Source of the DNA: a virus
Taxonomy: Duplodnaviria; Heunggongvirae; Uroviricota; Caudoviricetes
Length of the DNA: 64,000 nt
Direction: 5' to 3' (one strand)
IMG/VR virus record: IMGVR_UViG_3300037790_000024
A program made the position numbers and the translations under genes. Below, piece by piece: positions 14,215 to 50,228 of the stretch (position 1 is the first letter of the stretch; each line of letters begins with the position of its first letter). Below the pieces are notes generated by a model. It did not search any database and was not told the DNA's origin. It worked only from the letters and a program-made list of their open reading frames with translations.

Positions 14215-14388
14215 ATAAATCTCCTCTATTCAATTCTAAGCTTCTCTACACTATCTACTGGTAGGGTAGCCTACCCAACACCATAATAATCCAACACAGA
14301 GCAACACAGAAGCTCCTAGGGGTATTCTAGAGGGTGATACTGCCATACCATCTGTAATACCCAATACTTAAATTTAATCTTACACACA

Positions 14389-17959: not shown

Positions 17960-18063
17960 TACAGGTATGTGGGAGGTGTTCTGCCTAGAAAGCTTTGAAG
18001 TGATGAAGGAGTTTGACACAAAAGCAGAGGCTGACGAATGGAAAGAACTCAACTGGGGGCGAT

Positions 18064-18309
18064 ATGAACACAAATGTGATTAAGGTGGACTTCAGAACTA
18101 AAACTGTGGTAGATAATAGAAAGCAAATCACCTACCAGTGCCATATCTGTAGACAGAATTTTTATTATGATTCAAAATATCACAAGAGGGTTCCTCTATT
18201 AGTGAAGATCAGGAAGGAAGTGTACTGTCCTGATTGCATTGACAGTATGGCTGAGTTTCTAAAAGACGAGAGGAAACGGATCTTTAAAGAGGATCATCCG
18301 GTGGACTAA
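18064..18309 (+). CDS. zinc-ribbon protein (C-x2-C ... C-x2-C)
   Basis: CHICRQ...CPDC; start moved to internal ATG (track ORF begins 18013). Confidence 0.45.
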   Translation: MNTNVIKVDFRTKTVVDNRKQITYQCHICRQNFYYDSKYHKRVPLLVKIRKEVYCPDCIDSMAEFLKDERKRIFKEDHPVD

Positions 18310-18325
18310 CAAGAATTCAGGTAAT

Positions 18326-18522
18326 TTTCATTCTCATTCAAAATCCTAAAAGAGCCTTGTACATGAAAGTGTACAGGGCTTTTTCATTTCCATTCAAAAT
18401 GCTAAAGAATTCAGAGAATTTTGATTTGATTTCAAAATCGATCCTGAGCCAAATGTAGAGAGAAATTTCATTCTGTTTCAAAATGCAAGTGTAGAGCGAT
18501 TTTTCATTTGAATTCAAAATCC
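18326..18522. repeat. iteron-like direct repeats (4 copies of about 21 bp TTTCATTC-N-CATTCAAAATSC, plus a half copy) with irregular spacing
   Basis: Copies near 18326, 18382, 18466, 18502; spacers 36-84 bp; non-coding. Confidence 0.6.
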
Positions 18523-18570
18523 TTAAAAAAATAGCGGGAACTTTTGAAATCATTTTTATATTGCACACGA

Positions 18571-18586
18571 TGGAACGAATCTTGCA
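18571..18586 (+). promoter_or_regulatory. sigma54-like -24/-12 motif (TGGAAC-N5-TTGCA), copy 1 of a conserved intergenic motif
   Basis: Followed by conserved AGCAAAAATCATGCCAATAAAAAA extension shared with the copies at 21351 and 23203. Confidence 0.35.
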
Positions 18587-18780
18587 TTAGCAAAAATCAT
18601 GCCAATAAAAAACATTCGCGCAGGGTGTGCGTATCACCCCCAGAGCACCGCTGATCGAACCGTTAATAATATCGTAGCAAAACCCCACCACCAGATCAAC
18701 CCCTAAATTAAAAATAAATAAAATAATTTTTTATTCCTTGTATATGCACAAAGCGATCAGAAAAAAGATCGATTAAAGTG

Positions 18781-18809
18781 TTGACATTAGGATCTGCATG
18801 TTTTATTCT
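18781..18809 (+). promoter_or_regulatory. sigma70-like promoter (TTGACA-17-TATTCT)
   Basis: Consensus -35, 17-bp spacer, upstream of the 18844 gene. Confidence 0.45.
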
Positions 18810-18843
18810 GTGCCCATGCTTAATGACAACAGAGGATCAGAGT

Positions 18844-19359
18844 ATGAAAGAGAACAGACAAAAATTGCGCTTATTTGACAAGGAGCTAGGAAACAAAGTG
18901 ATCATTAATGTTTGCTGGCAGCACTTATCAAGAAATAAGGAAGCCTATCTGTCGGTAGGCATTCAGGAAGTTAAGTTGTTTGGAAAAAAGATCCAAGGCT
19001 GTCAAGAGCAGATTAGAGCGATCAAACAAATGGGCTGTCCTGATGATTTCTCCTTTTTAGTGGATCATCATCTACTGTCCCGATCTGGTTTTGGTAAGCA
19101 TGAGATCGCAAACTTCACTTATTTTTTAAAAAAGACAAAAGAGCATCTATCTAAGCCACCAGCAGACAGATCCGATCTATGGACTGTTGATCGTCTTGTC
19201 GATTATTCAGGCTTGACAAAAAATCAGATCGAATCTATGGTATTACTTCCAATTGACAGCAGAGAGATCGAAGAAGCTCTAAAGGAGAAAAGAGATCTAA
19301 CACTGTTGACACTGGAAACAATAGAGAATAAGATCAACATTCCATTAAATAAAAGATAA
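18844..19359 (+). CDS. hypothetical protein (GATC-rich island)
   Basis: Start at MKENRQKL with RBS; track ORF starts 18778. Confidence 0.5.
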   Translation: MKENRQKLRLFDKELGNKVIINVCWQHLSRNKEAYLSVGIQEVKLFGKKIQGCQEQIRAIKQMGCPDDFSFLVDHHLLSRSGFGKHEIANFTYFLKKTKEHLSKPPADRSDLWTVDRLVDYSGLTKNQIESMVLLPIDSREIEEALKEKRDLTLLTLETIENKINIPLNKR

Positions 19360-19371
19360 GAGGATCTAATT

Positions 19372-19872
19372 ATGGAACTAAAAGAAGCCGTTCAGATTTT
19401 CCGCAAACTCTCAAACGAGTTAAACGCTGATTTCTCAGCCTATCCACTAGAGGAGATCAAAGAAGGGATCAAGAGATTGCAAGACGAATCAAACCCTGAT
19501 GATCTCATGCATTCAGCGGGTATTCTGGCTGTATGTATGAATGCTACAGATGACGACATGCACGATCACACGATAGAGGAGTTGATCGATCTGTTAGAAG
19601 AAGTTGATCAGATAGGGATTGATGATTATCTGGATCTTTCGGCGGGTGAAGTGAGATTGATCCATGAAGACGAGATCGACGAGATTTGGACAGAATCTCT
19701 AATTGATTTGATCAAAGAATGTTACGATCTCGGAGATGTGCCAAGCTTTGTTAGCATTGACTGGGAACAGACAGCCCAAAATTGCAAAGTTGACGGAAAA
19801 GGGCATCATTTCAGCGGTTATGATGGATCGGAGCACTACAGCGCACCATTTTACATTTTCCGCACAAACTAG
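19372..19872 (+). CDS. hypothetical acidic protein
   Basis: 166 aa, RBS aagaggatctaattATG. Confidence 0.5.
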   Translation: MELKEAVQIFRKLSNELNADFSAYPLEEIKEGIKRLQDESNPDDLMHSAGILAVCMNATDDDMHDHTIEELIDLLEEVDQIGIDDYLDLSAGEVRLIHEDEIDEIWTESLIDLIKECYDLGDVPSFVSIDWEQTAQNCKVDGKGHHFSGYDGSEHYSAPFYIFRTN

Positions 19873-19881
19873 GGGGATCAG

Positions 19882-20106
19882 ATGCTAGGAATGTTTAAGA
19901 AACAGAAGCCAGATCAAGATCCTGTAGCCTTAGAGCTTGACGCAAGCCGATCAGCCTTGTTTATGCCTCAGGATCTGACAAGGGAACAATGCGAAGCCCT
20001 ACAAGGCTTGCTAGATGTCGCAAGACGCAACCCAGAACAGCCGATCATTGTCTCCTTCAGTGGGAAAAGCTGGCATATTAGCAAAAACTTAATTTCTTTT
20101 ATTTAA
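19882..20106 (+). CDS. hypothetical protein
   Basis: 74 aa. Confidence 0.45.
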   Translation: MLGMFKKQKPDQDPVALELDASRSALFMPQDLTREQCEALQGLLDVARRNPEQPIIVSFSGKSWHISKNLISFI

Positions 20107-20119
20107 AGAGGATTAAAAA

Positions 20120-20344
20120 ATGAAAAATACAGCGGAATTTCTGGGATATATAAAAGTTCCCTTTGATTTTGAAACTGAAGAAGAGACAGATCACTACGAT
20201 CTTGTGTCTGCGTTAGAATTTCCAAAAGGCTGGGATTTTTCGGAATACTATTGCAGCCCAATTGCAAGTGTGATAATATTTGAGTGTGATCATCTTCCAA
20301 CAGAGGAAGAGATCCAAACAATAGAGAAAACTTTAAGAGGCTAA
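20120..20344 (+). CDS. hypothetical acidic protein
   Basis: 74 aa, RBS aagaggattaaaaaATG. Confidence 0.45.
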   Translation: MKNTAEFLGYIKVPFDFETEEETDHYDLVSALEFPKGWDFSEYYCSPIASVIIFECDHLPTEEEIQTIEKTLRG

Positions 20345-20348
20345 TACC

Positions 20349-20465
20349 ATGAAAAAACACAACTTGACAAAGCAAGAAAAGAAACAAGCCCAACAACAAC
20401 GGAGAGCAAGAAGATCCGCACGTGGCAGACAGTGGACAGATCAAACCTATAAAGTAATATATTAA
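20349..20465 (+). CDS. small basic protein (38 aa)
   Basis: MKKHNLTKQEKKQAQQQRRARRSARGRQW...; manual translation. Confidence 0.3.
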   Translation: MKKHNLTKQEKKQAQQQRRARRSARGRQWTDQTYKVIY

Positions 20466-20538
20466 AAGTTTACTATTACCACTTGATCCGATCAGGTGGT
20501 AATGTTAAACTACAAGAAAATGACAAAGGGATAATATT

Positions 20539-20643
20539 ATGAAAACACTAAAAGCAGTTGTTCTATTTCTTCTCGCAGTGGTGCTGCTACCCCCTGCGAT
20601 CATTTCTCTTTTCTTTTTAATTAGCATATTGCTAGCCCTTTAA
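20539..20643 (+). CDS. small hydrophobic membrane peptide (34 aa)
   Basis: MKTLKAVVLFLLAVVLLPPAIISLFFLISILLAL; manual translation. Confidence 0.3.
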   Translation: MKTLKAVVLFLLAVVLLPPAIISLFFLISILLAL

Positions 20644-20655
20644 GGAGCGTTTAAC

Positions 20656-21006
20656 ATGTATCAAATTATTAGTCTTTATAAAATCGCAGAACTTGACAAC
20701 TGGGAAAACGGGATCACAGAATCAACAGCACATGCCCGAATTGATCTAAAATGGAGGAATTCAGATCTTAAGGGTTTGATCTCTGATGTGTCAGAGTTTG
20801 TCGGGGACAAAGAACCAGCGATCAACCCCTGCGGAGATGAAGCAAGCCGGATCGATTGGCAAGTGTATGAAAACGGGGAAGGATACCCAGCGACAGAGCG
20901 AGAGATGGATCAATTTAAGGAAGGAAAGATCGATCTTTATCTTTGCACATATACGGCACATGTTGAGCAAGTGACAAAGCCGGATCTTGAAAAGCTTTTA
21001 AAATAA
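20656..21006 (+). CDS. hypothetical protein
   Basis: 116 aa, RBS aaggagcgtttaacATG. Confidence 0.5.
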   Translation: MYQIISLYKIAELDNWENGITESTAHARIDLKWRNSDLKGLISDVSEFVGDKEPAINPCGDEASRIDWQVYENGEGYPATEREMDQFKEGKIDLYLCTYTAHVEQVTKPDLEKLLK

Positions 21007-21018
21007 GAGGATTAAAAA

Positions 21019-21114
21019 ATGGATGAATTAGAATTATTTCTTGACAATTACGAAGATCAAGAGATCGATTTATCAGACGATGACACAAGCGATCCAGAGA
21101 TGGATCAGGAATAA
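21019..21114 (+). CDS. small acidic peptide (31 aa)
   Basis: MDELELFLDNYEDQEIDLSDDDTSDPEMDQE; RBS aagaggattaaaaaATG; followed by terminator. Confidence 0.25.
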   Translation: MDELELFLDNYEDQEIDLSDDDTSDPEMDQE

Positions 21115-21127
21115 AAAGAAAGAAGAA

Positions 21128-21155
21128 GCCCGACAAAATGATCGGGTTTTTTCTT
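21128..21155 (+). terminator. rho-independent terminator
   Basis: GCCCGA-caaaatga-TCGGG followed by TTTTTT. Confidence 0.6.
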
Positions 21156-21169
21156 GTTCATTAAATAGT

Positions 21170-21185
21170 TGGCACAGTGTTTGCA
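21170..21185 (+). promoter_or_regulatory. sigma54-like -24/-12 motif (TGGCAC-N5-TTGCA), consensus match
   Basis: ttGGCACagtgtTTGCAtgg; part of repeated intergenic element. Confidence 0.4.
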
Positions 21186-21350
21186 TGGCTAGCAAGCACC
21201 ATGCCAGATCAAATATTATGCCAGAAAATCGGATATGCTTTAGAGCGAATATAGGGCCGTTTTTAGCCGTTTTTAATGTTTTAAGCCATACTTGCCCAAG
21301 GTGGATCGAGATCTCCCAACAGGAGCGAATTTAGCCCTATTTTTGAGAGT

Positions 21351-21366
21351 TGGCACGATGTTTGTA
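21351..21366 (+). promoter_or_regulatory. sigma54-like motif (TGGCAC-N5-TTGTA) within a repeated intergenic element of about 150 bp
   Basis: Element 21240-21420 is a near-repeat of 23100-23265. Confidence 0.35.
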
Positions 21367-21497
21367 TAAGCAAAACTCATGCCAACATAAAATAGAAAAA
21401 ATATAAAAATAAATGTTAAAAAGTGTTGATCAAGTTCTTTATATATGAGACCATGATCCCGTAGTTTTAAATTAAACATTATTAAAGGATCGAGAAT

Positions 21498-21662
21498 ATG
21501 AAAACTTTACTTGTTTGTGCTGTTGTCTGGTTTGGCTGTCTGTCTGCCCTTCCTGATGATCAATCAGCTATTGAGTTTAAAAGCTCAACCCCGTATGATC
21601 GTTGCATGGCACAATTTGAAGGATCAGAACACATTGATCAGTGTGCAGAGTTGAAAATTTAA
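21498..21662 (+). CDS. small secreted protein (54 aa, signal peptide)
   Basis: MKTLLVCAVVWFGCLSALPDD...; RBS aaaggatcgagaatATG. Confidence 0.3.
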   Translation: MKTLLVCAVVWFGCLSALPDDQSAIEFKSSTPYDRCMAQFEGSEHIDQCAELKI

Positions 21663-21688
21663 ACTATATAAAAGAAGAGGATCAGACA

Positions 21689-21988
21689 ATGAGATATATT
21701 AAAGCTTTTGATTTATGGAACCCTGCGATCTCTGGATTGATCGAGCAAGGCAAGATACAGGTGCAGTCAGGGCAGATCGCATATCGTCAAAACAGATCAG
21801 ATGTTTCTATAATAGACGAGATCAAAAAAGGCTATGTTAGAGCATTCCACGGATCGACAGTGAAGGAAGCGAGATCAAAATACTTGGAATACAAAGCCGC
21901 AGAAAAGCGAGCAGCTCGCAGACTAGAGATCAGGAGACAGATCAAAGCTCTAGAGGCAGAGCACGATCAATTAATAAAAGAAATGTAA
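21689..21988 (+). CDS. hypothetical protein
   Basis: Start at MRYIKAFDL with RBS aagaagaggatcagacaATG (track ORF starts 21641 with GTG). Confidence 0.45.
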   Translation: MRYIKAFDLWNPAISGLIEQGKIQVQSGQIAYRQNRSDVSIIDEIKKGYVRAFHGSTVKEARSKYLEYKAAEKRAARRLEIRRQIKALEAEHDQLIKEM

Positions 21989-22091
21989 AAAAGATTGATC
22001 AAAGTGTTTACTTTTAAAAATAGATGATTTAGAATTGTTTGCAAGTGGCGGGGAATTGGTTCCCGCCCTTAACTCAAAAAAGGTGATTAAA

Positions 22092-23021
22092 ATGTCGAAT
22101 ATTGTTACTTTCCCATCTCGCGCCGTTGTTGCTCCTGTTGCTGAAATTGCAACCCCATCAACTGAGATCATCACAACCCCAACAGAGCAAGATCGAGCTG
22201 TCTTCTCTGATTATGCCCACCACGATCAGAAAATGTTTGATATTGAGAGTTTGCCTCTTTCCAGTGAGTATGGAGTTATCCCAGATAAAAAAGGCTTGTT
22301 TGTGAATGGCAAAAATATCAACATTGTCTCCCATCATTATGAGATCGTGCAGCCTAAAAAAGTATATGAAACATTTGTAAATGTTGCTGAGTCTTCAGGG
22401 CTTACAATTAACAAGGTGCTGACAAACCCCGCTAACGGTGGCCTGATGATCTCTGCCCTGTTTGACCAAGTGAAGATCACCGGAGAGGATCACAACGTCA
22501 ATTTAGTGTTCTACACTTCGCACTGTGGCAAATATAAAACCTTCCTTACTCTGGATATGCTGCGCATGGCTTGTTTTAATCAGGTGCCTTGTCTCTATCA
22601 GAATAAAGATCGCTTTATCTTTGCAGAAAAGCACTACAAAAATGCGCTTAATATTGACTTGCTGCAAAAGTATCTGGAAAACATTCCTGCCAGTGTTCAG
22701 GCATACAACACTAAAGCGGAAATGCTCAAAGATATTAAATTGAGCAAAGCGGATTTTGTCGAATGGTACAAGGAACAGATCAAACTGTCAGAGGCTAGCA
22801 AGCAATACGACAGCAAGATCGCAAACATTGCCAACACGTACACCTTCGCAGACGGTCAAGAGATTGCCGGAGACGGTACAGCATGGAAAGCATTTAACGC
22901 TATTACATACATGAACACGCACCAAGGAAGAAATACACAATTTAAGGAAGAAAACAAACTTATTAAAGGAGGAAATAACTCTATTGAGATGATGGATCAG
23001 CTTTTGGCTATGGCTGGCTAA
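22092..23021 (+). CDS. hypothetical protein, about 310 aa (possibly DUF932-like plasmid/phage protein; unverified)
   Basis: Start MSNIVTFPS with RBS aaaaaggtgattaaaATG; largest gene of the island; followed by terminator. Confidence 0.55.
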   Translation: MSNIVTFPSRAVVAPVAEIATPSTEIITTPTEQDRAVFSDYAHHDQKMFDIESLPLSSEYGVIPDKKGLFVNGKNINIVSHHYEIVQPKKVYETFVNVAESSGLTINKVLTNPANGGLMISALFDQVKITGEDHNVNLVFYTSHCGKYKTFLTLDMLRMACFNQVPCLYQNKDRFIFAEKHYKNALNIDLLQKYLENIPASVQAYNTKAEMLKDIKLSKADFVEWYKEQIKLSEASKQYDSKIANIANTYTFADGQEIAGDGTAWKAFNAITYMNTHQGRNTQFKEENKLIKGGNNSIEMMDQLLAMAG

Positions 23022-23042
23022 TTCATCCCAGCATCACCAAGG

Positions 23043-23070
23043 AAGCCCGCACAAAAGCGGGCTTTTTTGT
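23043..23070 (+). terminator. rho-independent terminator
   Basis: AAGCCCGC-acaaaa-GCGGGCTT then TTTTTTG. Confidence 0.65.
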
Positions 23071-23202
23071 GTCTGTTGATCCGGTATACTCTAAAACCGA
23101 TTTTAAAGCCCTTTTTAGCGCTTTTTATAATATTACGCTATAACTGCCCTAGCATGATCGAGATCTCCCAGTGTGTGCGAATTCGGGCTTTTCTAGGCCA
23201 CT

Positions 23203-23218
23203 TGGCACGATAATTGAT
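23203..23218 (+). promoter_or_regulatory. sigma54-like motif (TGGCAC-N5-TTGAT), copy in repeated intergenic element
   Basis: cttGGCACgataaTTGATcaagcaagatctatgccaacaaaaaaa. Confidence 0.3.
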
Positions 23219-23268
23219 CAAGCAAGATCTATGCCAACAAAAAAATTTAAAAATATATGTTTTAACTG

Positions 23269-23296
23269 TTGATCTGATCTGTGATTGTGTTAAGAT
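23269..23296 (+). promoter_or_regulatory. sigma70-like promoter (TTGATC-16-TAAGAT)
   Basis: Upstream of small gene at 23333. Confidence 0.35.
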
Positions 23297-23332
23297 GTCC
23301 TTAAGTTAATCAGAAACGAAGAGGATCAAAAG

Positions 23333-23440
23333 ATGGATAAATTACTAGACGGTTTAGAGTTGGTACTGGAGCTGGCTGCTTTTTGTACTTTGTTAGTATT
23401 GCCTGCCACTATCGCAGCTTTACATTATGGCATTATCTAA
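23333..23440 (+). CDS. small hydrophobic peptide (35 aa)
   Basis: MDKLLDGLELVLELAAFCTLLVLPATIAALHYGII; RBS gaagaggatcaaaagATG. Confidence 0.25.
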   Translation: MDKLLDGLELVLELAAFCTLLVLPATIAALHYGII

Positions 23441-23453
23441 GAGGATCACAAAA

Positions 23454-23615
23454 ATGACTAAATCACAAAAAATCTCAAAAGCTGTTCAATCTCTCATTGT
23501 CTGGGAGCGTATCCACGCCGAAGACATTGTAACAGGAAAAGAGGATCGGAAAGTGAGCAGAGAAGCGATCAAACAATATCGGGAAGAGCTTAAAGAGTTG
23601 GGTATTAACTTATAA
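23454..23615 (+). CDS. hypothetical protein (53 aa)
   Basis: Start MTKSQKISK with RBS aagaggatcacaaaaATG. Confidence 0.45.
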   Translation: MTKSQKISKAVQSLIVWERIHAEDIVTGKEDRKVSREAIKQYREELKELGINL

Positions 23616-23640
23616 CTTTAATAAACCCATCCCCCAAAAG

Positions 23641-23668
23641 AGGCCGCCACTAGAGCGGCCTTTTTATT
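23641..23668 (+). terminator. rho-independent terminator
   Basis: AGGCCGC-cactaga-GCGGCCT then TTTTATT. Confidence 0.65.
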
Positions 23669-23929
23669 GCCTGTTATTATTCCAGATAATTTAAAAAATC
23701 TATCCTGATCTTTTCCCTGTATATTGTCCCCCTAATATGAGCTAAGCCGCTCTGTGTGCCCTTCTAACGGGCTTTTATTCTCCAGCCTTTGCCCTGTATC
23801 ACTGAAGGAAAGAAAACAAGTAAAAACACGGTATATAAGCTTGTATGGCAAAGGCTAATTATTATATATCCCAATATAGCGAGGCCATATAGATAAGCTA
23901 TGCTTATATAGATGTGCTAAGCACACTTA

Positions 23930-24120
23930 TAAACAAATGTCAACTAATTAAGAAAAATTAATATAAAAATAGATATATATAATAAAAACTAATATTAAAT
24001 TTTAATATTAATAAACTAATATAATTAATATTAATAAATAATATTAACAAACAATGTTCCACGTGGAACACGTGAAAGAGATTAATATTAATTTGTCCCC
24101 CCTATGTTGAACAACATAAT
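23930..24120. repeat. AT-rich region with TAATATTAAT-type repeats and two perfect palindromes (GTTCCACGTGGAAC at about 24056-24069; TATGTTGAACAACATA at about 24103-24118)
   Basis: Non-coding 850-bp gap between terminator 23668 and promoter 24470; candidate origin/operator. Confidence 0.5.
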
Positions 24121-30179: not shown

Positions 30180-30387
30180 ATTCAAAAACAGACTTATTAT
30201 TCTACCACTGTTAATAATCATTCCTGTAGTGGCTCTTGTAGTAGGCACTGTAGATGGTTGTTGGGAGATTATAACGACAGGTTCTTACACAGAAACTTGG
30301 GAGTGGTTAAAAGAGGGTTGGAGTATTTTTAAAGAAGGTGTAGTTATTTTCTGGAAAGGGGGAGATCCTAGTGAAAATATTATTTAA
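30169..30387 (+). CDS. membrane protein
   Basis: MFHRFKNRLIILPLLIIIPVVALVVG TM helix. Confidence 0.45.
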   Translation: MFHRFKNRLIILPLLIIIPVVALVVGTVDGCWEIITTGSYTETWEWLKEGWSIFKEGVVIFWKGGDPSENII

Positions 30388-31336
30388 AGGACTATTTGGA
30401 AGTCACTTGTACGGACTTAATACAGAGAACAGTGACAGAGACTATAAAGCTGTATACCTGCCAGAGCCTGAGGATATTATCCTAGGTAGAGCTAAGGGAA
30501 GTATTTCTCACTCTACAGGCGGGAGTGATAGCAAGAATTCCTCAGAAGATGTAGACACAGAGTATTTTTCTCTTCAAGAGTTTGTCAAACTGGCTTGTCA
30601 GGGACAAACTGTAGCTATTGATATGCTTCACACCCCTCCTAGCCTAACTTTGGAAACTAGTGAGATCTGGGAACATCTTGTCTCTCATCGTCAATTATTC
30701 TATTCTAAAAATATGGACTCCTTTATGGGCTACGTTAAGAAACAGGCTGCTAAATACGGGATTAAAGGAAGTAAGGTAGCTGCATTGCAAGAGATTCTTG
30801 ATGTGATTGAAGAGGAAATGGATACAAACGGAGATATTCCTGATATATCTTATCTGCGTCATTCTCTGCCTGTCAATGAATATTGTTTCTGGGTGGATGA
30901 AGAAAACAACGGACAGAGCTTTTATTCGGTGAATGGGTCTTGGATGCATGATGTAATTTCTGTAGGGGAACTCCAGTCTAGAGTGCAAAAGCAGTATGAC
31001 AATTATGGACACAGAGCAAAACAAGCCGCTAATAATGAAGGTATTGATTGGAAAGCAATTAGTCATGCTCTAAGAGCTGGGTATCAACTTTACCATATTT
31101 TTGTAGAGGGAGATTTTGAATATCCTCTGATAGAAACCTACTACCTTAAGCAAGTTAAGGCTGGAGAGCTAGACTATACAACAAATGTTGCAGAGGAGCT
31201 GGAGCTTCTTGTGGAGATGTTAGATGCTAAAAGTGCTGAAGCACCTTTCCCAGAAAAGGTAGATTTTCAATACTGGGATGAATGGGTGTATTCTGTCTAC
31301 CTACAACATATTTTATTAGAGGAGGGGCTGCTATGA
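30371..31336 (+). CDS. nucleotidyltransferase (Pol-beta superfamily minimal NTase fold; resembles 'predicted nucleotidyltransferase' PF10127-type)
   Basis: N-terminal hG[GS]x9-13 DxD motif: LFGSHLYGLNTENSDRDYKAVYLP; GTG start with RBS; 321 aa. Confidence 0.6.
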   Translation: MKILFKGLFGSHLYGLNTENSDRDYKAVYLPEPEDIILGRAKGSISHSTGGSDSKNSSEDVDTEYFSLQEFVKLACQGQTVAIDMLHTPPSLTLETSEIWEHLVSHRQLFYSKNMDSFMGYVKKQAAKYGIKGSKVAALQEILDVIEEEMDTNGDIPDISYLRHSLPVNEYCFWVDEENNGQSFYSVNGSWMHDVISVGELQSRVQKQYDNYGHRAKQAANNEGIDWKAISHALRAGYQLYHIFVEGDFEYPLIETYYLKQVKAGELDYTTNVAEELELLVEMLDAKSAEAPFPEKVDFQYWDEWVYSVYLQHILLEEGLL

Positions 31337-35535: not shown

Positions 35536-35778
35536 TTAGTATCCTTGAATCAAAACAATCTTAATATGTTCTTCTGGATCAAGATCTTCCTCGGCTACAC
35601 ACTCAGCCATGTATTCACTCTCGTAAATATATTCTTCACCTACCCAAGTAGCTGACATGGCATATTGACCATGATCAGCCTCTACCCTAACCTCCATCTC
35701 TGGATCAAGGTTTTCCAACTGTTTAATTAATTCTCTCACTTTCATATTAAAACTCCTCGTTATAACTACCAACATCAA
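35536..35778 (-). CDS. hypothetical acidic protein
   Basis: 80 aa. Confidence 0.4.
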   Translation of the reverse strand: MMLVVITRSFNMKVRELIKQLENLDPEMEVRVEADHGQYAMSATWVGEEYIYESEYMAECVAEEDLDPEEHIKIVLIQGY

Positions 35779-36652
35779 AAATGTTTGGCATACCTTTTAA
35801 AGTCCAGTGACGAATCATCTGTCTGCGATCATCAAAGACAGCATAAACATTATATTTTCCCCTAATGTGATTTTCGTACAACTCGTCTTTAATTACAGAG
35901 TCTTTACGGGAATCTCCGGCCTGTCTCATATACAGGGTAGGTTTAGGAGTTATATAGGAAGAAATCCATTCATAAGTTTCTTTATAACAACTTCCATCCC
36001 TACCTGATAAGAAGATAATATCTATCCCAGTTTGAGAACGAATCCCTGAGACAGCAGCTATAATAGACTCTCTAGGAGAATCTTCCCCCACCTTGCTCCA
36101 ATCAAAAGGCGATCTTCCTTCCATAGAGGCCACAGTACCGTCAATATCACAGATAATGCAATCTGGTAGATCAGGAGCATGCTCATAAAGTTTAACACTT
36201 CCAAACTGTCGTTCAAACCTTATATACTGATCCCACAGTAGAGCTTCAGACAAACCCCCCTGTCTCTGAGCGTTACGCTTAACTAAAGTTTCCCAAGGAC
36301 AAGGGAAGAGTTTTTCCTCATAATCATACCCACAGTCCTTAGCCCACTGCTTCCATTTATTACGAGCTTTGGTGCTAAGGTTGGTATCTGAAATTATGAT
36401 GTTGGAGTTATTGTGTGTAGCCCACTTAGCTTTCTGCAACTGAACCTCAGTAACCTTATTCTCATTGTTTTTTGAAAATTTATACTTAGTCCAGTCCCTG
36501 ACAGAATTTGTAAACAATGAAAAGCGGATCTCATCTCTATTGAGGTTAGCCCATTTCTCACCTTTAGCTATACCTTCTATCTTGAACTCTTCAGCCCAAG
36601 TAGTTTTACCTGAAGCGCTGGCTCCAATTGTTAAAATAATTTTTGGCATCAT
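35747..36652 (-). CDS. pseT: polynucleotide 5'-kinase/3'-phosphatase (T4 Pnk homolog)
   Basis: MMPKIILTIGASASGKTTWAEEF vs T4 [22 protein letters not shown]; C-terminal HAD-like phosphatase DIDGT...DDR; 301 aa, same length as T4 Pnk. Confidence 0.85.
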   Translation of the reverse strand: MMPKIILTIGASASGKTTWAEEFKIEGIAKGEKWANLNRDEIRFSLFTNSVRDWTKYKFSKNNENKVTEVQLQKAKWATHNNSNIIISDTNLSTKARNKWKQWAKDCGYDYEEKLFPCPWETLVKRNAQRQGGLSEALLWDQYIRFERQFGSVKLYEHAPDLPDCIICDIDGTVASMEGRSPFDWSKVGEDSPRESIIAAVSGIRSQTGIDIIFLSGRDGSCYKETYEWISSYITPKPTLYMRQAGDSRKDSVIKDELYENHIRGKYNVYAVFDDRRQMIRHWTLKGMPNIFDVGSYNEEF

Positions 36653-36933: not shown

Positions 36934-37215
36934 CTACCTCCCTTCATAAAACCACATATACGCATTACAGTAGGCATGCACTGCCCCCTCTGTCATCCCA
37001 GTGTTATGATCATGCTGTAGATGGACAGGCCATTTAAGAAAATTAGGAGGAAACAGCCTCCAATCAATATACTTGCTAGTTATACCAGCAGGGGGCTTGT
37101 TTATCAACAACTCGTTGCAAAACATGCAACGGCCTTTTTGTCTTCTAACATACTCCTCTCTAACCTCCTTTCTTTCTCTAGGAGAGAGTTTTTCATAGTT
37201 GGTGGGGAGATTCAT
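36934..37215 (-). CDS. hypothetical Zn-binding protein
   Basis: CMFCNE...HLQHDHNTG...HAYCN. Confidence 0.45.
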   Translation of the reverse strand: MNLPTNYEKLSPRERKEVREEYVRRQKGRCMFCNELLINKPPAGITSKYIDWRLFPPNFLKWPVHLQHDHNTGMTEGAVHAYCNAYMWFYEGR

Positions 37216-38510
37216 TATGAAGCATCCTCCTCGTCCACGTTTTCTTCTTTGTAGATCCCTTCCATAATGCGGAATGCTTTAGATTTGTTTTTATAAAACT
37301 TGGGTGTCAAACCTTGTCCATCTACACGGATAACAACACCTTCATTAACATGAGATGGATCTCTGTAGTCTTCTGTCAACACCTCAGGGCGGTCTGTTAG
37401 CTGATCTACCAGTTCTACTAGTTTATCTTTATCTCCATCATAAACAAAAGGCTCTACCAGATCAAGAGGTGGCTCAATGCCACGTTGCTCACACCAAGCT
37501 ACCAACTGAGGCTCTGTCAAATCCACCTCTGTTCCATCTACAGTGGTGTATGTAACACGGTAGGCGTAAAACTTGTAGTTTCCTTCAGGGCAACCATACT
37601 TGTACACCATAGTGTCTCCATACTTCTTAGTGTAAGCCTTGTCTTTTAGAGTTTTTACATTGTGGCTTCCCATAATAGGTTTGTCGTTAGCGTAGCCCAC
37701 GATCTCCCCATATACAGTAACACCTCTTTCCAGATGAGGCTTTAGTTGCTCCAGAATCTCAAAGCGAAAGGCTTCTGATCCATGAAAACCGTCTTTGTCT
37801 TTATCGACAGATTTCAAAACAACTCTTCGTGTGCCTGCAACATATTCCCACTCTTCTGTTTTGAAGATAGGCACTACTTTATTAATCAACTTCTTCCACT
37901 CTGGAAGATTTTTAGTCACCAAGGTGTTAGAATAACGAGCTGAAGTGCCATGTCCTTTAGCCTGAATAGAGATAACAGATCCAACAGGAATACGATCAAC
38001 ACTATATTTAAACTGATCTGTATCTACGTGCTGGTGGAACAAAGGAGTTTCAACAGCTTTACGAGCTTGTTTTTTCTTGTTGCCAATAGCTCTGAGGGTG
38101 TGAGGATTGACATATTTCTTAGCAATGCCAACTCCATTCAGTTCTTCAAACTGATCTCCCAAAGAAAAAGTGTCAATATCATAGCCAGTGAACACCAAGG
38201 AGTTAATATCAGTGAAATAGCCACAAGATTTAACTCCTAAGAAAGGTTGTGCTCTCACCTTACCGTTGTCGTCAAAAAATCCTTTCTTGTCAGGATCTTT
38301 GTTTTTATCTGAGTGGCGATAAAGATTGTTGTTTGACAAAAACTCTGGAGACAACTGAGTGTCTGGTGGGAAGAACACACCAACATACCCCACTTCCAGT
38401 TCTTTTGAAACAATAACTGGTTCTCCAAGTACATACGCCACTTGAATTTTATTTGCCTTTTCGATAGGCTCAACTTTGTCAATTTTTGCAATAATACCAC
38501 AATAGTTCAT
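37215..38510 (-). CDS. RNA ligase (Rnl2-like nucleotidyltransferase motif KxHGT) fused to N-terminal tRNA-binding OB-fold (EMAP/Myf-like) domain
   Basis: N-term CGIIAKIDKVEPIEKANKIQVAYVLGEPVIVSKEL resembles tRNA_bind domain; IQAKGHGTSARY resembles Rnl2 motif I EKIHGTNFS; adjacent to pnk; 431 aa. Confidence 0.6.
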   Translation of the reverse strand: MNYCGIIAKIDKVEPIEKANKIQVAYVLGEPVIVSKELEVGYVGVFFPPDTQLSPEFLSNNNLYRHSDKNKDPDKKGFFDDNGKVRAQPFLGVKSCGYFTDINSLVFTGYDIDTFSLGDQFEELNGVGIAKKYVNPHTLRAIGNKKKQARKAVETPLFHQHVDTDQFKYSVDRIPVGSVISIQAKGHGTSARYSNTLVTKNLPEWKKLINKVVPIFKTEEWEYVAGTRRVVLKSVDKDKDGFHGSEAFRFEILEQLKPHLERGVTVYGEIVGYANDKPIMGSHNVKTLKDKAYTKKYGDTMVYKYGCPEGNYKFYAYRVTYTTVDGTEVDLTEPQLVAWCEQRGIEPPLDLVEPFVYDGDKDKLVELVDQLTDRPEVLTEDYRDPSHVNEGVVIRVDGQGLTPKFYKNKSKAFRIMEGIYKEENVDEEDAS

Positions 38511-42714: not shown

Positions 42715-42789
42715 TGGCCTGCTTACAAGGACTCGAACCCTGACTAAGGGAGTAGAAATCCCTTGTGCTATCCATTACACCATAAGCAG
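42715..42789 (-). tRNA. tRNA-Arg (TCT)
   Basis: Acceptor CTGCTTA/TAAGCAG, anticodon loop TTTCTAC, T-loop TTCGAGT, CCA encoded. Confidence 0.8.
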
Positions 42790-42794
42790 TTATT

Positions 42795-42871
42795 TGGTCG
42801 GAGATAAAGGACTTGAACCTTTGACCCCTTGCTCCCAAAGCAAGTGCTCTACCAGACTGAGCTAATCTCCG
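42795..42871 (-). tRNA. tRNA-Pro (TGG)
   Basis: Acceptor CGGAGAT/ATCTCCG, anticodon loop TTTGGGA, CCA encoded. Confidence 0.8.
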
Positions 42872-42879
42872 TTTTGTTC

Positions 42880-42950
42880 TGGGGTGACGCGCAGAATCAA
42901 ACTGCTCCATACAGGGTCACAACCTGATGTCCTCTCAGAGGTACGCCACA
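42880..42950 (-). tRNA. degenerate tRNA-His-like element (anticodon GTG; abnormal D-arm); possible pseudo-tRNA
   Basis: Acceptor GTGGCGT/GCGTCAC + C73 + CCA, anticodon loop TTGTGAC, but D-arm only about 11 nt. Confidence 0.3.
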
Positions 42951-43016
42951 TTAAATAAGTGAGAGGTTGTTGGCGCAACCCCTCTTGATGAATTGACAGC
43001 TCATCATCGTTTATTA

Positions 43017-43092
43017 TGGCAGGGAAGGTGAGACTCGAACTCACGCATCAGGGGATCAAAGCCCCTTGCCTTATCCACTTGGCTACTTCCCA
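43017..43092 (-). tRNA. tRNA-Gln (TTG)
   Basis: Anticodon loop CTTTGAT, T-loop TTCGAGT, CCA encoded. Confidence 0.75.
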
Positions 43093-43099
43093 ACTTATT

Positions 43100-43186
43100 T
43101 GGTACAGGAGGAGAGACTCGAACTCTCACGCCACTAAGGACACTGGAACCTAAATCCAGCGCGGCTACCAATTACGCCACTCCTGC
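43100..43186 (-). tRNA. tRNA-Leu (TAG), type II
   Basis: Acceptor GCAGGAG/CTCCTGT, anticodon loop TTTAGGT, long variable arm. Confidence 0.8.
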
Positions 43187-43197
43187 ATATTTTCTAA

Positions 43198-43282
43198 TGG
43201 TACGAGAGGTGGGGATCGAACCCACACGCTAAAAAGCAAGGGATTTTAAGTCCCTCATGACTACCAATTCCATCACTCTCGC
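43198..43282 (-). tRNA. tRNA-Leu (TAA), type II
   Basis: Anticodon loop CTTAAAA, long variable arm, T-loop TTCGATC. Confidence 0.8.
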
Positions 43283-43371
43283 TATAAGGAGGATTCTAGA
43301 TACGTCTACCTAGCGATACTGGTACTCCAGTCAACGTACTCTCGCAGAGGTTCCTCTCTCTCTTTTTGTAT

Positions 43372-43447
43372 TGGTTGAGGCAGTTGGACTTGAACCAACG
43401 ACAACCCGATTATCGGTCGGGTACTCTACCAACTGAGTTATGCCTCA
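43372..43447 (-). tRNA. tRNA-Ile (GAT)
   Basis: Acceptor TGAGGCA/TGCCTCA, anticodon loop CCGATAA. Confidence 0.75.
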
Positions 43448-43452
43448 TTATT

Positions 43453-43581
43453 TGGTGGAATGATCTGGGTTTTATCCAGAGACCTAGTTTCAAACTAGTC
43501 AGCCTTGTATAGCCAGCATAAATTGTCTCGGTTTGGACTTACCTCCCCTCTCTTTTCGGACGACTCTCCTGCTTTCATTCC
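43453..43581 (-). ncRNA. 129-nt tRNA-like element: 7-bp acceptor-like stem GGAATGA/TCATTCC + A + CCA, T-arm-like hairpin, about 55-nt insertion in 5' half
   Basis: Sits in register within the tRNA array, 5 nt from tRNA-Ile and 6 nt from tRNA-Asn; internal hairpin GACTAG-TTTGAAA-CTAGGTC (anticodon-like TGA). Confidence 0.4.
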
Positions 43582-43587
43582 GTAAGG

Positions 43588-43659
43588 CTGGCATGGTAGG
43601 ACTCGAACCTACGACAACAACATTAACAGTGTTGCGTTCTACCACTGAACTACATGCCA
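43588..43659 (-). tRNA. tRNA-Asn (GTT), CCA not encoded
   Basis: Anticodon stem CAACA/TGTTG loop CTGTTAA; T-arm GTAGGTTCGAGTCCTAC. Confidence 0.75.
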
Positions 43660-43669
43660 ATATTCTTTT

Positions 43670-43745
43670 TGGTGCTCCGTCAGGGACTCGAACCCCATCT
43701 CCCAAGTTATGAGCTTGGCACTCTTACCCGATGAGTTACCGGAGC
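43670..43745 (-). tRNA. tRNA-Met (CAT) elongator-type (or Ile-lysidine CAT)
   Basis: Acceptor GCTCCGG, anticodon loop CTCATAA, G1-C72 paired. Confidence 0.7.
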
Positions 43746-43875
43746 GTGTATTCTATCACAGTCTGTTCCTGTGAGTCAAGCCCTAACCATCACGTTAGTT
43801 AATGCGCCTTAGCGGGGATTCAAACCCTATTCTGATACCAATTGTCGCTACCTAGCAGAATCGAACTGCATGCTC

Positions 43876-43965
43876 TGGCAGAGGGAGAGGGATTTGAACC
43901 CTCGGAGGCTTTTAAGCCTCACCACCTTAGCAGGGTGGTACAATAAACCGCTCTGACATCCCTCT
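43876..43965 (-). tRNA. tRNA-Ser (GCT), type II
   Basis: Acceptor AGAGGGA/TCCCTCT, anticodon loop CTGCTAA, long variable arm, T-loop TTCAAAT. Confidence 0.8.
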
Positions 43966-43970
43966 ATGTT

Positions 43971-44046
43971 TGGAGCGGGTGATGGGATTTGAACCCACAA
44001 CATCTGACTTGGAAGGACAGCACTCTACCAATTGAGTTACACCCGC
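43971..44046 (-). tRNA. tRNA-Gly (TCC)
   Basis: Acceptor GCGGGTG/CACCCGC, anticodon loop CTTCCAA, T-loop TTCAAAT. Confidence 0.8.
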
Positions 44047-48220: not shown

Positions 48221-48351
48221 TAAGTGTAATAGTGGAAAAAGGGCATGAAAGCAAGCCCTAACGTTTTATGTCGCACGATCCTCCTCCTTTGGTGTGACAG
48301 CGGGGAGGCACACTCCCCTTTCTTACAGAATTTTAATATTAAGAGAAGAGT

Positions 48352-48690
48352 ATGGGAAAGAGAGATAATAGTGGTAAATTTGTCAAAGGTGTCTCTGGTA
48401 ATCCCAACGGAAGACCTAAGAACACTAGAAACGCTAGTGACCCACAAACAAAATTAAAGAGAGCTTTAGACAACGGATGGGATCTAGTTAAACTTAAAGA
48501 GTTTATCGTAGACCTAGTTTCAGATAAAGAAACAAAAATGTCTCCAGCTCAAATCGAAAGACTAACAAAAACTCTTGCTGATATAGAGTTAAAACTCTTA
48601 GAGATGGATTTCAAATACAACCACTCAGAGGAAGTAGAACAACAAGAAGAAGAGGATGATGAACCTCATTTCTCTACTACAGCAGGATAA
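48352..48690 (+). CDS. terminase small subunit (putative)
   Basis: GVSGNPNGRPKNTRN motif common in phage TerS/DNA-binding N-termini; immediately upstream of TerL. Confidence 0.55.
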   Translation: MGKRDNSGKFVKGVSGNPNGRPKNTRNASDPQTKLKRALDNGWDLVKLKEFIVDLVSDKETKMSPAQIERLTKTLADIELKLLEMDFKYNHSEEVEQQEEEDDEPHFSTTAG

Positions 48691-48701
48691 AGAGGAGATG
48701 A

Positions 48702-50228
48702 ATGGCTAAGCAAGTAATCCGGCCTCAGAGGGGGTCTCAGGAACTTGCCATGAACATTAAGGCTGACTTAATTATTTATGGTGGTGCAGCAGGTTCTGGT
48801 AAGTCCCACCTACTTTTAATGAAGTCACTACCTTACATTAAAGACCCTAACTTCCATGCGTCATACTTTAGACGTAATACAAAACAGCTTACACAACAAG
48901 GTGGTTTGTGGGAAGAAAGTGGCAAAATGTACAGGCCATTTAAACCAAAAACAAATTCAAGCGACAAGAAGCACACATTTCGTTCAGGGTCTTCTATCGC
49001 TTTTAATCACTTAGAACATGAAAAGCATAAACTGTCCTACCAAGGTGGTCAGTTATCAGCTATCTTTTTCGATGAGCTTACTCACTTTACAGAGACACAG
49101 TTCACCTACCTACTATCTCGTTTGCGTTCTGATGCAGAAGTAGATGGTTTTTGTATGGCTAGCTGTAACCCAGATAATGAAAGCTGGGTGTTAAACTGGG
49201 TAGAATGGTGGTTGGATGAAGAAGGATATCCAGATAAAGATAAACAAGGTGTTGTAAGATACTACCTGATTATAGATGATAAACCTGTCTTTGCTGATAC
49301 AGCAGAAGAACTTGAAGATCTTTATCCAGATATGTGTAGGGTGTACAATCCAAACACAGATGAATATGTACATGTTCCACCAAAAACATTTACATTTATT
49401 TCTGGAACAATCTTTGATAATCCTATTCTGATTCAGAACAACCCTAAATATCTAGCAGAGCTTAATGCTCTTCCTCGTGTAGAGAGAGCTAGACTTCTGG
49501 AAGGGAATTGGTATGCAGTTCCTGAGTCTGAAGGTTACTGTAAAAGAGAATGGTTCTTAAAGGCCAGTGCTTTACCAAATCAAGTTAAGATGGCAAGGGC
49601 TTGGGATAAGGCTGCAACAGAGCCTAGTGAGGTTAATCGTTATCCTGACTTTACCGCTTCTGTAGGAATGGCTAAAGACAGAGACGGATTCTACTACCTT
49701 TTCGGTAACTACTGTCCTGAGAATAAGGACAAGGTAGACCCAGAAATAAAAGGCAGATTTAGAAGAAGAGCTGGAGAAAGAGATAAGATTATTCTTAAGC
49801 AGGCTCAATATGATGGAGAAGAAACTACAGTGGTTCTCCCTGAGGATGCTGGAGCTGCTGGTAAGATGGAATTCACAGAGAGTTCTAAAAGTTTGATAGA
49901 GGCAGGATTCTTAGTTAAAAGAGACCCCACTCCTACAAACAGAAGTAAGCTTACCAGATTCCTACCTTTTGCAGCAGCCTGTGAAAACGGATTAGTTTAT
50001 ATTGTAGAGAACACTTTTGAGAAAAAAGTGTTGGACTACCTGTACAAAGAACTGGAAGCATTTAGCGGAGAGCCTAGTACATCAGCAAGAAAAGATGATG
50101 TGTGTGACTGCACTGCTTCAGCTTTTAATTTTCTGGCAAAACAAAAAGTGTTGCCTAGTTTTAGTTTAAATGTTAATAACACCAATAGTAAAGTAGCTAA
50201 TGTTAAACAAAGTGTTTTTGCTACTTAG
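48702..50228 (+). CDS. terminase large subunit
   Basis: Walker A GGAAGSGKS, Walker B-like IFFDELTHF, C-terminal nuclease acidic residues; 508 aa. Confidence 0.9.
   Translation: MAKQVIRPQRGSQELAMNIKADLIIYGGAAGSGKSHLLLMKSLPYIKDPNFHASYFRRNTKQLTQQGGLWEESGKMYRPFKPKTNSSDKKHTFRSGSSIAFNHLEHEKHKLSYQGGQLSAIFFDELTHFTETQFTYLLSRLRSDAEVDGFCMASCNPDNESWVLNWVEWWLDEEGYPDKDKQGVVRYYLIIDDKPVFADTAEELEDLYPDMCRVYNPNTDEYVHVPPKTFTFISGTIFDNPILIQNNPKYLAELNALPRVERARLLEGNWYAVPESEGYCKREWFLKASALPNQVKMARAWDKAATEPSEVNRYPDFTASVGMAKDRDGFYYLFGNYCPENKDKVDPEIKGRFRRRAGERDKIILKQAQYDGEETTVVLPEDAGAAGKMEFTESSKSLIEAGFLVKRDPTPTNRSKLTRFLPFAAACENGLVYIVENTFEKKVLDYLYKELEAFSGEPSTSARKDDVCDCTASAFNFLAKQKVLPSFSLNVNNTNSKVANVKQSVFAT

Follow-up and report, generated by a model that had tools for sequence, protein, structure and literature searches.

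Repeated inverted pairs of sigma-54-type boxes between genes of a large uncultured tailed phage

The usual view is that phages depend on host sigma-70, on sigma factors of their own or on their own polymerases, and use of sigma-54 is rarely reported. The sigma-54 promoter consensus is said to be YTGGCACGrNNNTTGCW, as attributed to Barrios et al. 1999. T4-type phages reportedly carry mobile regulatory cassettes, the promoter-early stem-loops (PeSLs) ascribed to Arbiol et al. 2010, and symmetric bidirectional sigma-70 promoters are said to have been described by Warman et al. 2021. In the lytic Pseudomonas phage YuA, sigma-54-type promoters are reported in use alongside sigma-70 (bioRxiv 10.1101/2023.10.13.562163), which is a modest precedent, and a further study reports widespread intragenic sigma-54 binding (PMC4591121). 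Described here is an intergenic element found four times in a 64,000-nucleotide (nt) stretch of DNA, referred to as the window, from IMG/VR virus record IMGVR_UViG_3300037790_000024, part of a large uncultured tailed phage. Each copy consists of two boxes of the sigma-54 (-24/-12) type that face each other and overlap. Literature searches gave no account of such paired boxes.

The initial annotation took the element as one rightward promoter with an unexplained tail, the 'extension' AAGCAA..CATGCCAA, because the dyad had gone unnoticed. Reverse-complemented, this tail reads TTGGCATG-N4-TTGCT and is itself a second sigma-54-type box. Thus the core of the element is a dyad, with the layout TGGCAC-N5-TTGC, a centre of 4 or 7 nt, and GCAA-N5-ATGCCA. 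The copies and their boxes are as follows.

18571..18604, plus strand: dyad copy 1, TGGAACGAATCTTGC-ATTA-GCAAAAATCATGCCA
18571-18585, plus strand: plus box of copy 1, one mismatch (TGGAAC...TTGC), GG and GC kept
18590-18604, minus strand: minus box of copy 1, exact, TGGCATGATTTTTGC
21170..21206, plus strand: dyad copy 2, TGGCACAGTGTTTGC-ATGGCTA-GCAAGCACCATGCCA, 7-nt centre, both boxes exact
21209-21223, minus strand: third, degenerate box directly right of copy 2, TGGCATAATATTTGA
21351..21384, plus strand: dyad copy 3, TGGCACGATGTTTGT-ATAA-GCAAAACTCATGCCA, plus box without the -12 C (TTGT), minus box exact, TGGCATGAGTTTTGC
23203..23236, plus strand: dyad copy 4, TGGCACGATAATTGA-TCAA-GCAAGATCTATGCCA, plus box without the -12 C (TTGA), minus box exact, TGGCATAGATCTTGC

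The centres measure 4, 7, 4 and 4 nt in the order of the copies. The minus-strand box is exact (TGGCAT-N5-TTGC) in all four copies and the plus-strand box in one; GG and GC are both kept by the plus-strand box in two of the four. In the window elements GG at -24 and GC at -12 stand ten bases apart, as in sigma-54 promoters, and the copies also agree with the flanks of the extended consensus (pyrimidine before TGG, G or A after TGGCAC, A or T after TTGC). The resemblance to RpoN promoters that had been noted is genuine, and stronger than first described in view of the exact minus-strand boxes. The copy at 21170 can be read directly as a perfect TGGCAC-N5-TTGCA, as had been stated. The plus-strand box, on which the initial annotation relied, is the weaker one, the -12 C being missing in two copies and TGGAAC replacing TGGCAC in a third. 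The sequence ATGCCAG is present twice, 17 nt apart, through the degenerate box beside copy 2.

A scan of the window with the pattern TGGCAC-N5-TTG-N4-AGCAA-N5-ATGCCA, allowing up to three mismatches and with 100 shuffles as control, gave matches at 18571, 21351 and 23203, with 0.00 expected in shuffles. The copy at 21170, whose 7-nt centre makes it three bases longer, is picked up by the sub-pattern AGCAA-N5-ATGCCAA. A hidden Markov model (HMM) trained solely on 108 non-redundant dyads of unrelated viral contigs matches just these four copies within the 64 kb (E = 5e-10 to 6e-8). Pattern scan and HMM thus agree on the four positions given in the initial annotation. The window contains five exact boxes where 0.19 would be expected, each of them within one of the four elements. 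All copies are in plus orientation, the same as the genes, are intergenic and adjoin terminators.

The same 108 dyads were used to count bases at the positions that the pattern had left free. C follows TTG in 105/108 dyads, a purine follows TGGCAC in 105/108 and a pyrimidine precedes TGG in 87/108. In the mirrored half the purine is present in 103/108 and the pyrimidine in 93/108. As judged from these counts, the free positions track the sigma-54 consensus, so the resemblance appears to exceed what the pattern forced. In partner boxes that deviate, mismatches concentrate on two bases, the outer T in TGG and the T that opens TTGC, and spare both the leading G of GG and the TG that precedes the -12 C. 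Across the family the centre between TTGC and GCAA measures 4-7 nt. Boxes are also frequent outside pairs. In dyad-bearing viral loci 171 distinct boxes have no partner, and singles are roughly as numerous as pairs. Single boxes occur 229 times, in 66% of cases outside open reading frames (ORFs) of 80 amino acids (aa) or more; those between genes share the orientation of the next ORF 86 times and oppose it 49 times. Thus the functional unit looks like the single box, as would be the case for a promoter. That a 16-nt specificity stays constant across very different phages is also more readily explained by a conserved host factor than by phage regulators, which evolve fast.

In IMG/VR the dyad pattern occurs in at least 120 viral contigs, which, as listed, form 41 DNA-similarity clusters and range from 28 to 66% GC. 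Window and listed loci have no genes in common beyond weak polymerase/replication, primase and terminase matches (up to 15 kb compared per contig). Bacterial and archaeal genomes totalling 596 Gb gave 18 matches to the pattern, mostly chance-like. Each of them comes from a metagenome-assembled genome (MAG), the C of TTGC is present in under half, and several represent one conserved coding sequence. Two boxes in direct arrangement with the same spacing were found in 8 contigs, against at least 120 with inverted boxes, and are at least 15 times rarer; thus the inverted arrangement appears selected. Many listed loci carry tandem arrays of 3-4 dyads with a 43-46 bp period (e.g. L018, L048, L057, L098). 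Among the 120 loci listed, 44 have a dyad 0.3-2.3 kb upstream of where the large-terminase gene starts, and 27 have one 0.2-0.9 kb upstream of a terS-like gene.

Cultured phages carry the boxes as well. A BLAST query of ten mixed dyads against cultured phages led to Vibrio phages D260, D254 and D51; one array used as query gave nothing. The last 24 kb of D260 (OZ195864.1, locus L164 = 93215-117247) contain 8 exact boxes against 0.13 expected, with one inverted pair. These boxes lie at about 105.2-109.7 kb in a stretch of tiny annotated ORFs, beside genes annotated as DNA-transfer protein and DNA-binding protein. The boxes at locus positions 14291 and 16299 are each followed by the same sequence of about 30 nt, CTATTCAAAAAAaTGCGTATTTATGCA, which suggests repeated small transcription units. 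Arrays are absent from Caulobacter phage RW and MW202545.1, terminase relatives of array-bearing contigs, and the first 50 kb of Vibrio phage 355E48.1 show no box except one weak site.

Some dyad-bearing loci show further features. A Fur-box-like palindrome, AATGAGAATnATTCTCATT, lies about 20-210 bp from dyads in at least 16 of the 120 listed viral loci (for example L018:542, L008:3238, L045:1838 and L114:8809), and a window repeat at 18328 (minus strand) has the 12-mer GAATGAGAATGA in common with it. Locus L061 (IMGVR_UViG_3300036770_006768) has 21 exact sigma-54-type boxes in 13.5 kb. In L061 and L111 the boxes are extremely dense, and many are trailed about 15 nt later by the palindrome CTGCCAnnnnTGGCAG. 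Under genetic code 11 the box-dense region shows little coding potential, and searches of it for tRNAs and Rfam families found none. An ORF containing a sequence like region 2 of the sigma-70 family (..QQAAIFAMEGLKKYD..PLENFLW) lies near regions rich in sigma-54-type boxes at L002:962-1666 and in six further loci of that large-phage cluster; a PHROG search with it gave no match.

Few viral matches were obtained with the DUF932 protein of the window (22092-23021) as query, namely one distant IMG/VR locus and one weak match among cultured phages, and relatives were therefore taken from metagenome assemblies. The closest, L124 (71% protein identity), carries the dyad and the whole of the sequence that extends to its left at the same position as the window. 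The block of homology between window and L124 (window 22286-23257) stops just past the dyad and its A-tract, and different genes follow. In L125 (58%) the dyad TGGTACGGTTCTTGC-TAATA-GCAATTAGTGTGCCA stands ahead of a gene unrelated to that of the window, with more boxes spread over 1.7 kb of non-coding DNA. The genes that follow the copy-1 dyad and the L125 dyad are not homologous, and alignment of the copy-1 region with L125 gave no reliable similarity beyond the dyad. L150 has one dyad, in a non-coding gap, and four other relatives have none within 10 kb. The element is conserved yet sporadic among relatives, and it is found at a module boundary.

The sequences on either side of the window copies contain the following features.

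18349..18384, plus strand: terminator-like hairpin upstream of copy 1 (terminator scan)
18781..18809, plus strand: sigma-70-like promoter TTGACA-17-TATTCT, 10/12 match, 177 nt downstream of copy 1
21126..21155, no strand assigned: hairpin flanked on either side by T-rich runs, 15 nt ahead of copy 2, read by eye (the scan flags the minus strand only, 21146-21129)
21215..21350, plus strand: conserved extension left of copy 3, shared blocks TTTTTAGCnnTTTTTA, GCCATACTTGCCC, GATCGAGATCTCCCA and GCGAA
21385..21425, plus strand: A-rich tract directly right of copy 3, read directly
23038..23069, plus strand: terminator-like hairpin of the DUF932 gene, upstream of the copy 4 extension (terminator scan)
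23072..23202, plus strand: conserved extension left of copy 4, paralogue of 21215-21350, with an orthologous stretch in L124 (1082-1216)
23237..23265, plus strand: A-rich tract directly right of copy 4, read directly; the L124 homology block stops within it, at 23257

The two long forms, 21215-21425 and 23072-23265, show 134 identities in 193 aligned pairs, against 69 +/- 12 for composition-matched random partners. This is 5.5 standard deviations over the controls; thus the similarity is not that of AT-rich low complexity, and the alignment of about 150 bp first reported for these two copies is borne out. The initial annotation had named two grounds for giving the motif up, namely lack of conservation in related genomes together with lack of a transcript start or protein binding, or reduction to AT-rich low complexity. 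The motif is kept in related and in unrelated phage genomes, and the identity is well above controls. The placement of copies downstream of terminators also holds, with two hairpins from the scan and the third by eye; this third hairpin (21126-21155) could terminate in both directions. The placement upstream of sigma-70-like promoters is borne out in part: the site at 18781-18809 is the one strong match that follows a copy, and the TTGATC sites after the 21351 and 23203 copies are below threshold.

The elements are read here, tentatively and with a little less than even confidence, as sites at which the host's sigma-54 RNA polymerase docks, located on the borders between early transcription units and serving as enhancer-dependent promoters, as roadblocks or as both. 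In this phage the pairs head early transcription units: to their left is the terminator that closes the preceding unit, and to their right the A-rich, sigma-70-like promoter region of the unit that follows. The holoenzyme would dock at a pair as a stable closed complex. Given an active enhancer-binding ATPase, the complex would fire in two directions. Transcription of the downstream genes would come from the rightward box, which keeps GG and GC in two copies out of four, and the leftward box, exact in all four, would give short non-coding or antisense RNAs that run through the extension as far as the hairpin. A small RNA that begins at the element, as had been suggested earlier, is possible in the leftward direction only, through the conserved extension. 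With no activator the bound polymerase would form a roadblock or insulator between units. The large terminase of the window is 49-54% identical to terminases of Klebsiella, Aeromonas and Vibrio phages (115-143 kb), and rpoN is present in these hosts.

A broader proposition, a possibility somewhat less likely than not, is that the inverted overlapping pairs form a distinct, phage-specific class of element that would capture host sigma-54 polymerase, represented in at least 41 unrelated, mostly uncultured lineages and at least one cultured Vibrio phage. Such an element could be an enhancer-dependent promoter, compact and two-way, through which phage expression would be coupled to host stress or nutrient signalling. 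It could alternatively act as a high-affinity sink or roadblock, insulating phage units and depleting the host sigma-54 regulon.

Several points weigh against docking by sigma-54 polymerase. Overlapping face-to-face promoters cannot hold two holoenzymes at once, and nothing known of sigma-54 accounts for the strong preference for inverted pairs. The pair is near-absent from bacterial genomes and thus is not a standard sigma-54 promoter design. Two window copies have no -12 C in the gene-facing (plus) box. The extension of about 130 nt contains no ORF, its RNA structure gave no signal on either strand (z = -0.5 and -0.9, with positive covariation terms), and a search of window positions 18000-24000 against Rfam found no family overlapping the elements. 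An activator was also looked for. Six-frame translation of the window shows no GAFTGA, Walker A or RpoN-box signature, the early ORFs (15.2-30.4 kb) give no Pfam match and no DNA-binding domain, and none of the larger unknown window proteins checked is a bacterial enhancer-binding protein (bEBP). In 1.07 Mb of viral loci the regular expressions gave one GAFTGA match and one Walker-A-like match, the latter in a MAG contig (L141). The GAFTGA match, in L063, was taken as chance; Pfam gave no bEBP domain in its ORF. No sigma-54-like protein was found in the window or the viral loci either. An adjacent enhancer-binding-protein site, which the initial annotation had proposed to look for, was not recognisable upstream of the elements. 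The activator may be host-encoded or lie outside the 64 kb window. As to the extension, the pattern GATCGAGATCTCCCA-N20..50-TGGCAC gave 0 matches in IMG/VR and 25 in JGI metagenomes, all of them chance matches inside high-GC coding DNA, and so zero extra homologues for covariation.

The dyad might instead be the operator of a phage-encoded DNA-binding protein, dimeric or tetrameric and possibly with a sigma-54-like DNA-reading head, that would control adjacent sigma-70 promoters or mark module boundaries with host sigma-54 uninvolved. This is considered unlikely. In its favour, operators and iterons typically show inverted repeats and tandem arrays such as those of 3-4 copies seen here, the element is specific to phages, and the Fur-box-like palindromes close to dyads recall multi-operator control regions. 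An early protein with weak HHpred similarity to sigma-54 is on record for a Pectobacterium phage (PMC7693777). However, a dimer operator would have fixed half-site spacing and no lone half-sites, and what is found is a centre that varies from 4 to 7 nt, which a rigid dimer would not tolerate, and boxes that occur without a partner about as often as in pairs. No DNA-binding domain was detected in the early ORFs, and, over the up to 15 kb compared per contig, the weak replication and terminase matches are all that the window and the 120 listed loci share by way of protein families. The free positions, moreover, hug the sigma-54 consensus, with a specificity that is constant over 41 lineages of widely different GC content.

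That the copies are mobile cassettes, made up of terminator, spacer and promoter region and serving as homology patches in the shuffling of early modules, is improbable. The dyad would then be a passenger or a component. Two paralogous long forms of about 190 nt in one genome speak for such cassettes, as do the end of the L124 homology block just after the dyad and A-tract, the L125 dyad at the head of a gene non-homologous to that headed in the window, and the sporadic presence of copies among relatives. Mobility gives no account of a 34-nt dyad that recurs in 41 unrelated lineages with sigma-54-like fine structure, and the breakpoint at the element comes from a single mosaic junction. The cassette idea can hold alongside docking by sigma-54 polymerase, with which it is compatible.

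Quite improbable is a role as hairpin or cruciform, whether as an RNA processing or binding site within read-through transcripts or as an N4-type hairpin promoter extruded by supercoiling. The -12 elements are 4-7 nt apart, a loop-like length, and the outer TGGCA/TGCCA and inner TTGC/GCAA can pair. For some copies the predicted fold is also better than in shuffles (21345-21392, z = -3.7; L125, z = -2.2). However, the stability is weak and uneven, from -2.7 to -9.9 kcal/mol, with z of -0.3 to -1.9 in five of seven sequences. Complementarity between the 5-nt spacers of the two halves is 1.69/5 within elements against 1.84/5 between elements; thus a continuous hairpin does not appear to be under selection. 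The stems are conserved in sequence and do not covary, boxes exist singly without a partner, and no U-run follows the element on either strand. An intrinsic terminator or structured RNA was rejected on the same weak hairpins and lack of spacer complementarity, and because A-runs, not T-runs, follow the elements on the plus strand. N4-type hairpin promoters have a 5-7 bp stem and a 3-nt loop and go with a giant virion RNA polymerase gene. Here the centre is 4-7 nt, the stems are interrupted, and the window, with no ORF above 830 aa, encodes no such polymerase.

Chance similarity of AT-rich intergenic DNA can practically be dismissed for all the AT-richness of the region and the A-runs after each copy, given the shuffle control, the four HMM matches with E of 6e-8 or lower, the long-form identity and the conservation of copies in L124, L125 and L150.

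Other classes of site were tried and set aside. A partition or oriT-like site, an earlier suggestion, finds no support, the copies being dispersed singles with no such genes nearby. The window dyads lie about 25 kb from the terminase genes (48351-50228), and cos or pac repeats for a small terminase were rejected. Conserved blocks or spacings, compared by eye, do not fit a T4 MotA-box middle promoter, an extracytoplasmic function (ECF)-sigma promoter, a LuxO site (TTGCA-N3-TGCAA), an NtrC site, a dif/Xer site, a LexA box or parS.

The elements are situated within a block of small plus-strand genes at about 14-33 kb. The window encodes DNA polymerase I, a primase-helicase, large terminase, portal, major head and tape measure proteins, RNA-repair enzymes and ten tRNAs. 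A near-identity DNA search of 18300-23600 against cultured phages gave zero matches. The RNA-repair set (RlaP-like nucleotidyltransferase, polynucleotide kinase-phosphatase and RNA ligase) lies near the cluster of ten tRNA genes, and PhoH-like, ClpP-like and SPFH/Band-7 proteins are also encoded; the coordinates recorded for these genes together are 30371-31336, 35747-36652, 37215-38510 and 42715-44046.

Five direct repeats of about 35-47 nt are found at 18307-18529, between the terminator and dyad copy 1, with the consensus AAGWGTASAGnGAWTTTTCATTYnnATTCAAAATS. Upstream of the L125 dyad (L125:8560-8640), motifs ATTCAAAAT/TTTTCATTT loosely resemble them, in an alignment that is unconvincing. 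The four dyads also fall within an island of dense GATC.

18200..23650, no strand assigned: GATC-dense island, 108 GATC in 5.35 kb (20.2/kb, against 3.7/kb in the remaining window)

The density in the island is equal for coding DNA, in all three frames, and intergenic DNA. L124:1-2010 is GATC-dense as well, including genes without homology to those of the window, and relatives L121 and L151 have zero GATC across 8 kb and 21 kb. A shared ribosome-binding context, AAGAGGATCA-N5-7-ATG, which contains GATC, stands ahead of many island genes (window 18830-23557; L124:1590-1850). The string AAGAGGATCAGACAATG is identical in the window (at 21675) and L124.

The recurrence of the paired design in phages and its near-absence from bacterial genomes suggest an undescribed phage route to the alternative RNA polymerase of the host. 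Should sigma-54 holoenzyme bind the paired boxes, a large and varied set of phages would be using a transcription strategy that is so far unstudied. It would require an ATP-driven activator and could tie phage expression to nitrogen status, membrane stress or quorum sensing. The inverted pair would then also be a new promoter or insulator architecture, of relevance to synthetic biology. A motif this simple can be annotated in viral metagenomes, and with Vibrio phage D260 a cultured system is available in which to test it directly.

With bacterial sigma-54 promoters the phage boxes share GG and GC ten bases apart, the same flank preferences, intergenic sites and, for single boxes, an orientation that is mostly that of the next gene. 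Unlike them, the phage boxes are arranged face to face and overlapping, their -12 elements 4-7 nt apart; no enhancer-binding protein or upstream activator site was found with them, and their activity is predicted from sequence. In YuA (NC_010116), the promoter fragments annotated '-24/-12 consensus sequence' contain weak matches (such as AGGCAC-N5-CTGGC), lie within structural genes and form no inverted pair; as weak, unpaired sites they were rejected as a direct precedent.

Like PeSLs, the window elements belong to repeated intergenic combinations of terminator hairpin and promoter that flank small early genes and may lie at mosaic junctions. A repeated long form is present, and one breakpoint, from a single comparison, falls at the element. 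The promoter type differs, PeSLs having sigma-70 early promoters and no sigma-54-like dyad, and the window phage is not T4-like. As with bidirectional sigma-70 promoters, one compact symmetric element could start transcription both ways. Those promoters share a -10 element and lie back to back, whereas here two complete -24/-12 promoters would stand face to face, and they would yield overlapping, complementary 5' ends. Non-productive sigma-54 roadblock or occluder sites of E. coli and Salmonella offer a further likeness, in that stable closed complexes form and no gene need be driven. The bacterial sites are single boxes, often intragenic, whereas the phage elements are intergenic, paired and phage-specific.

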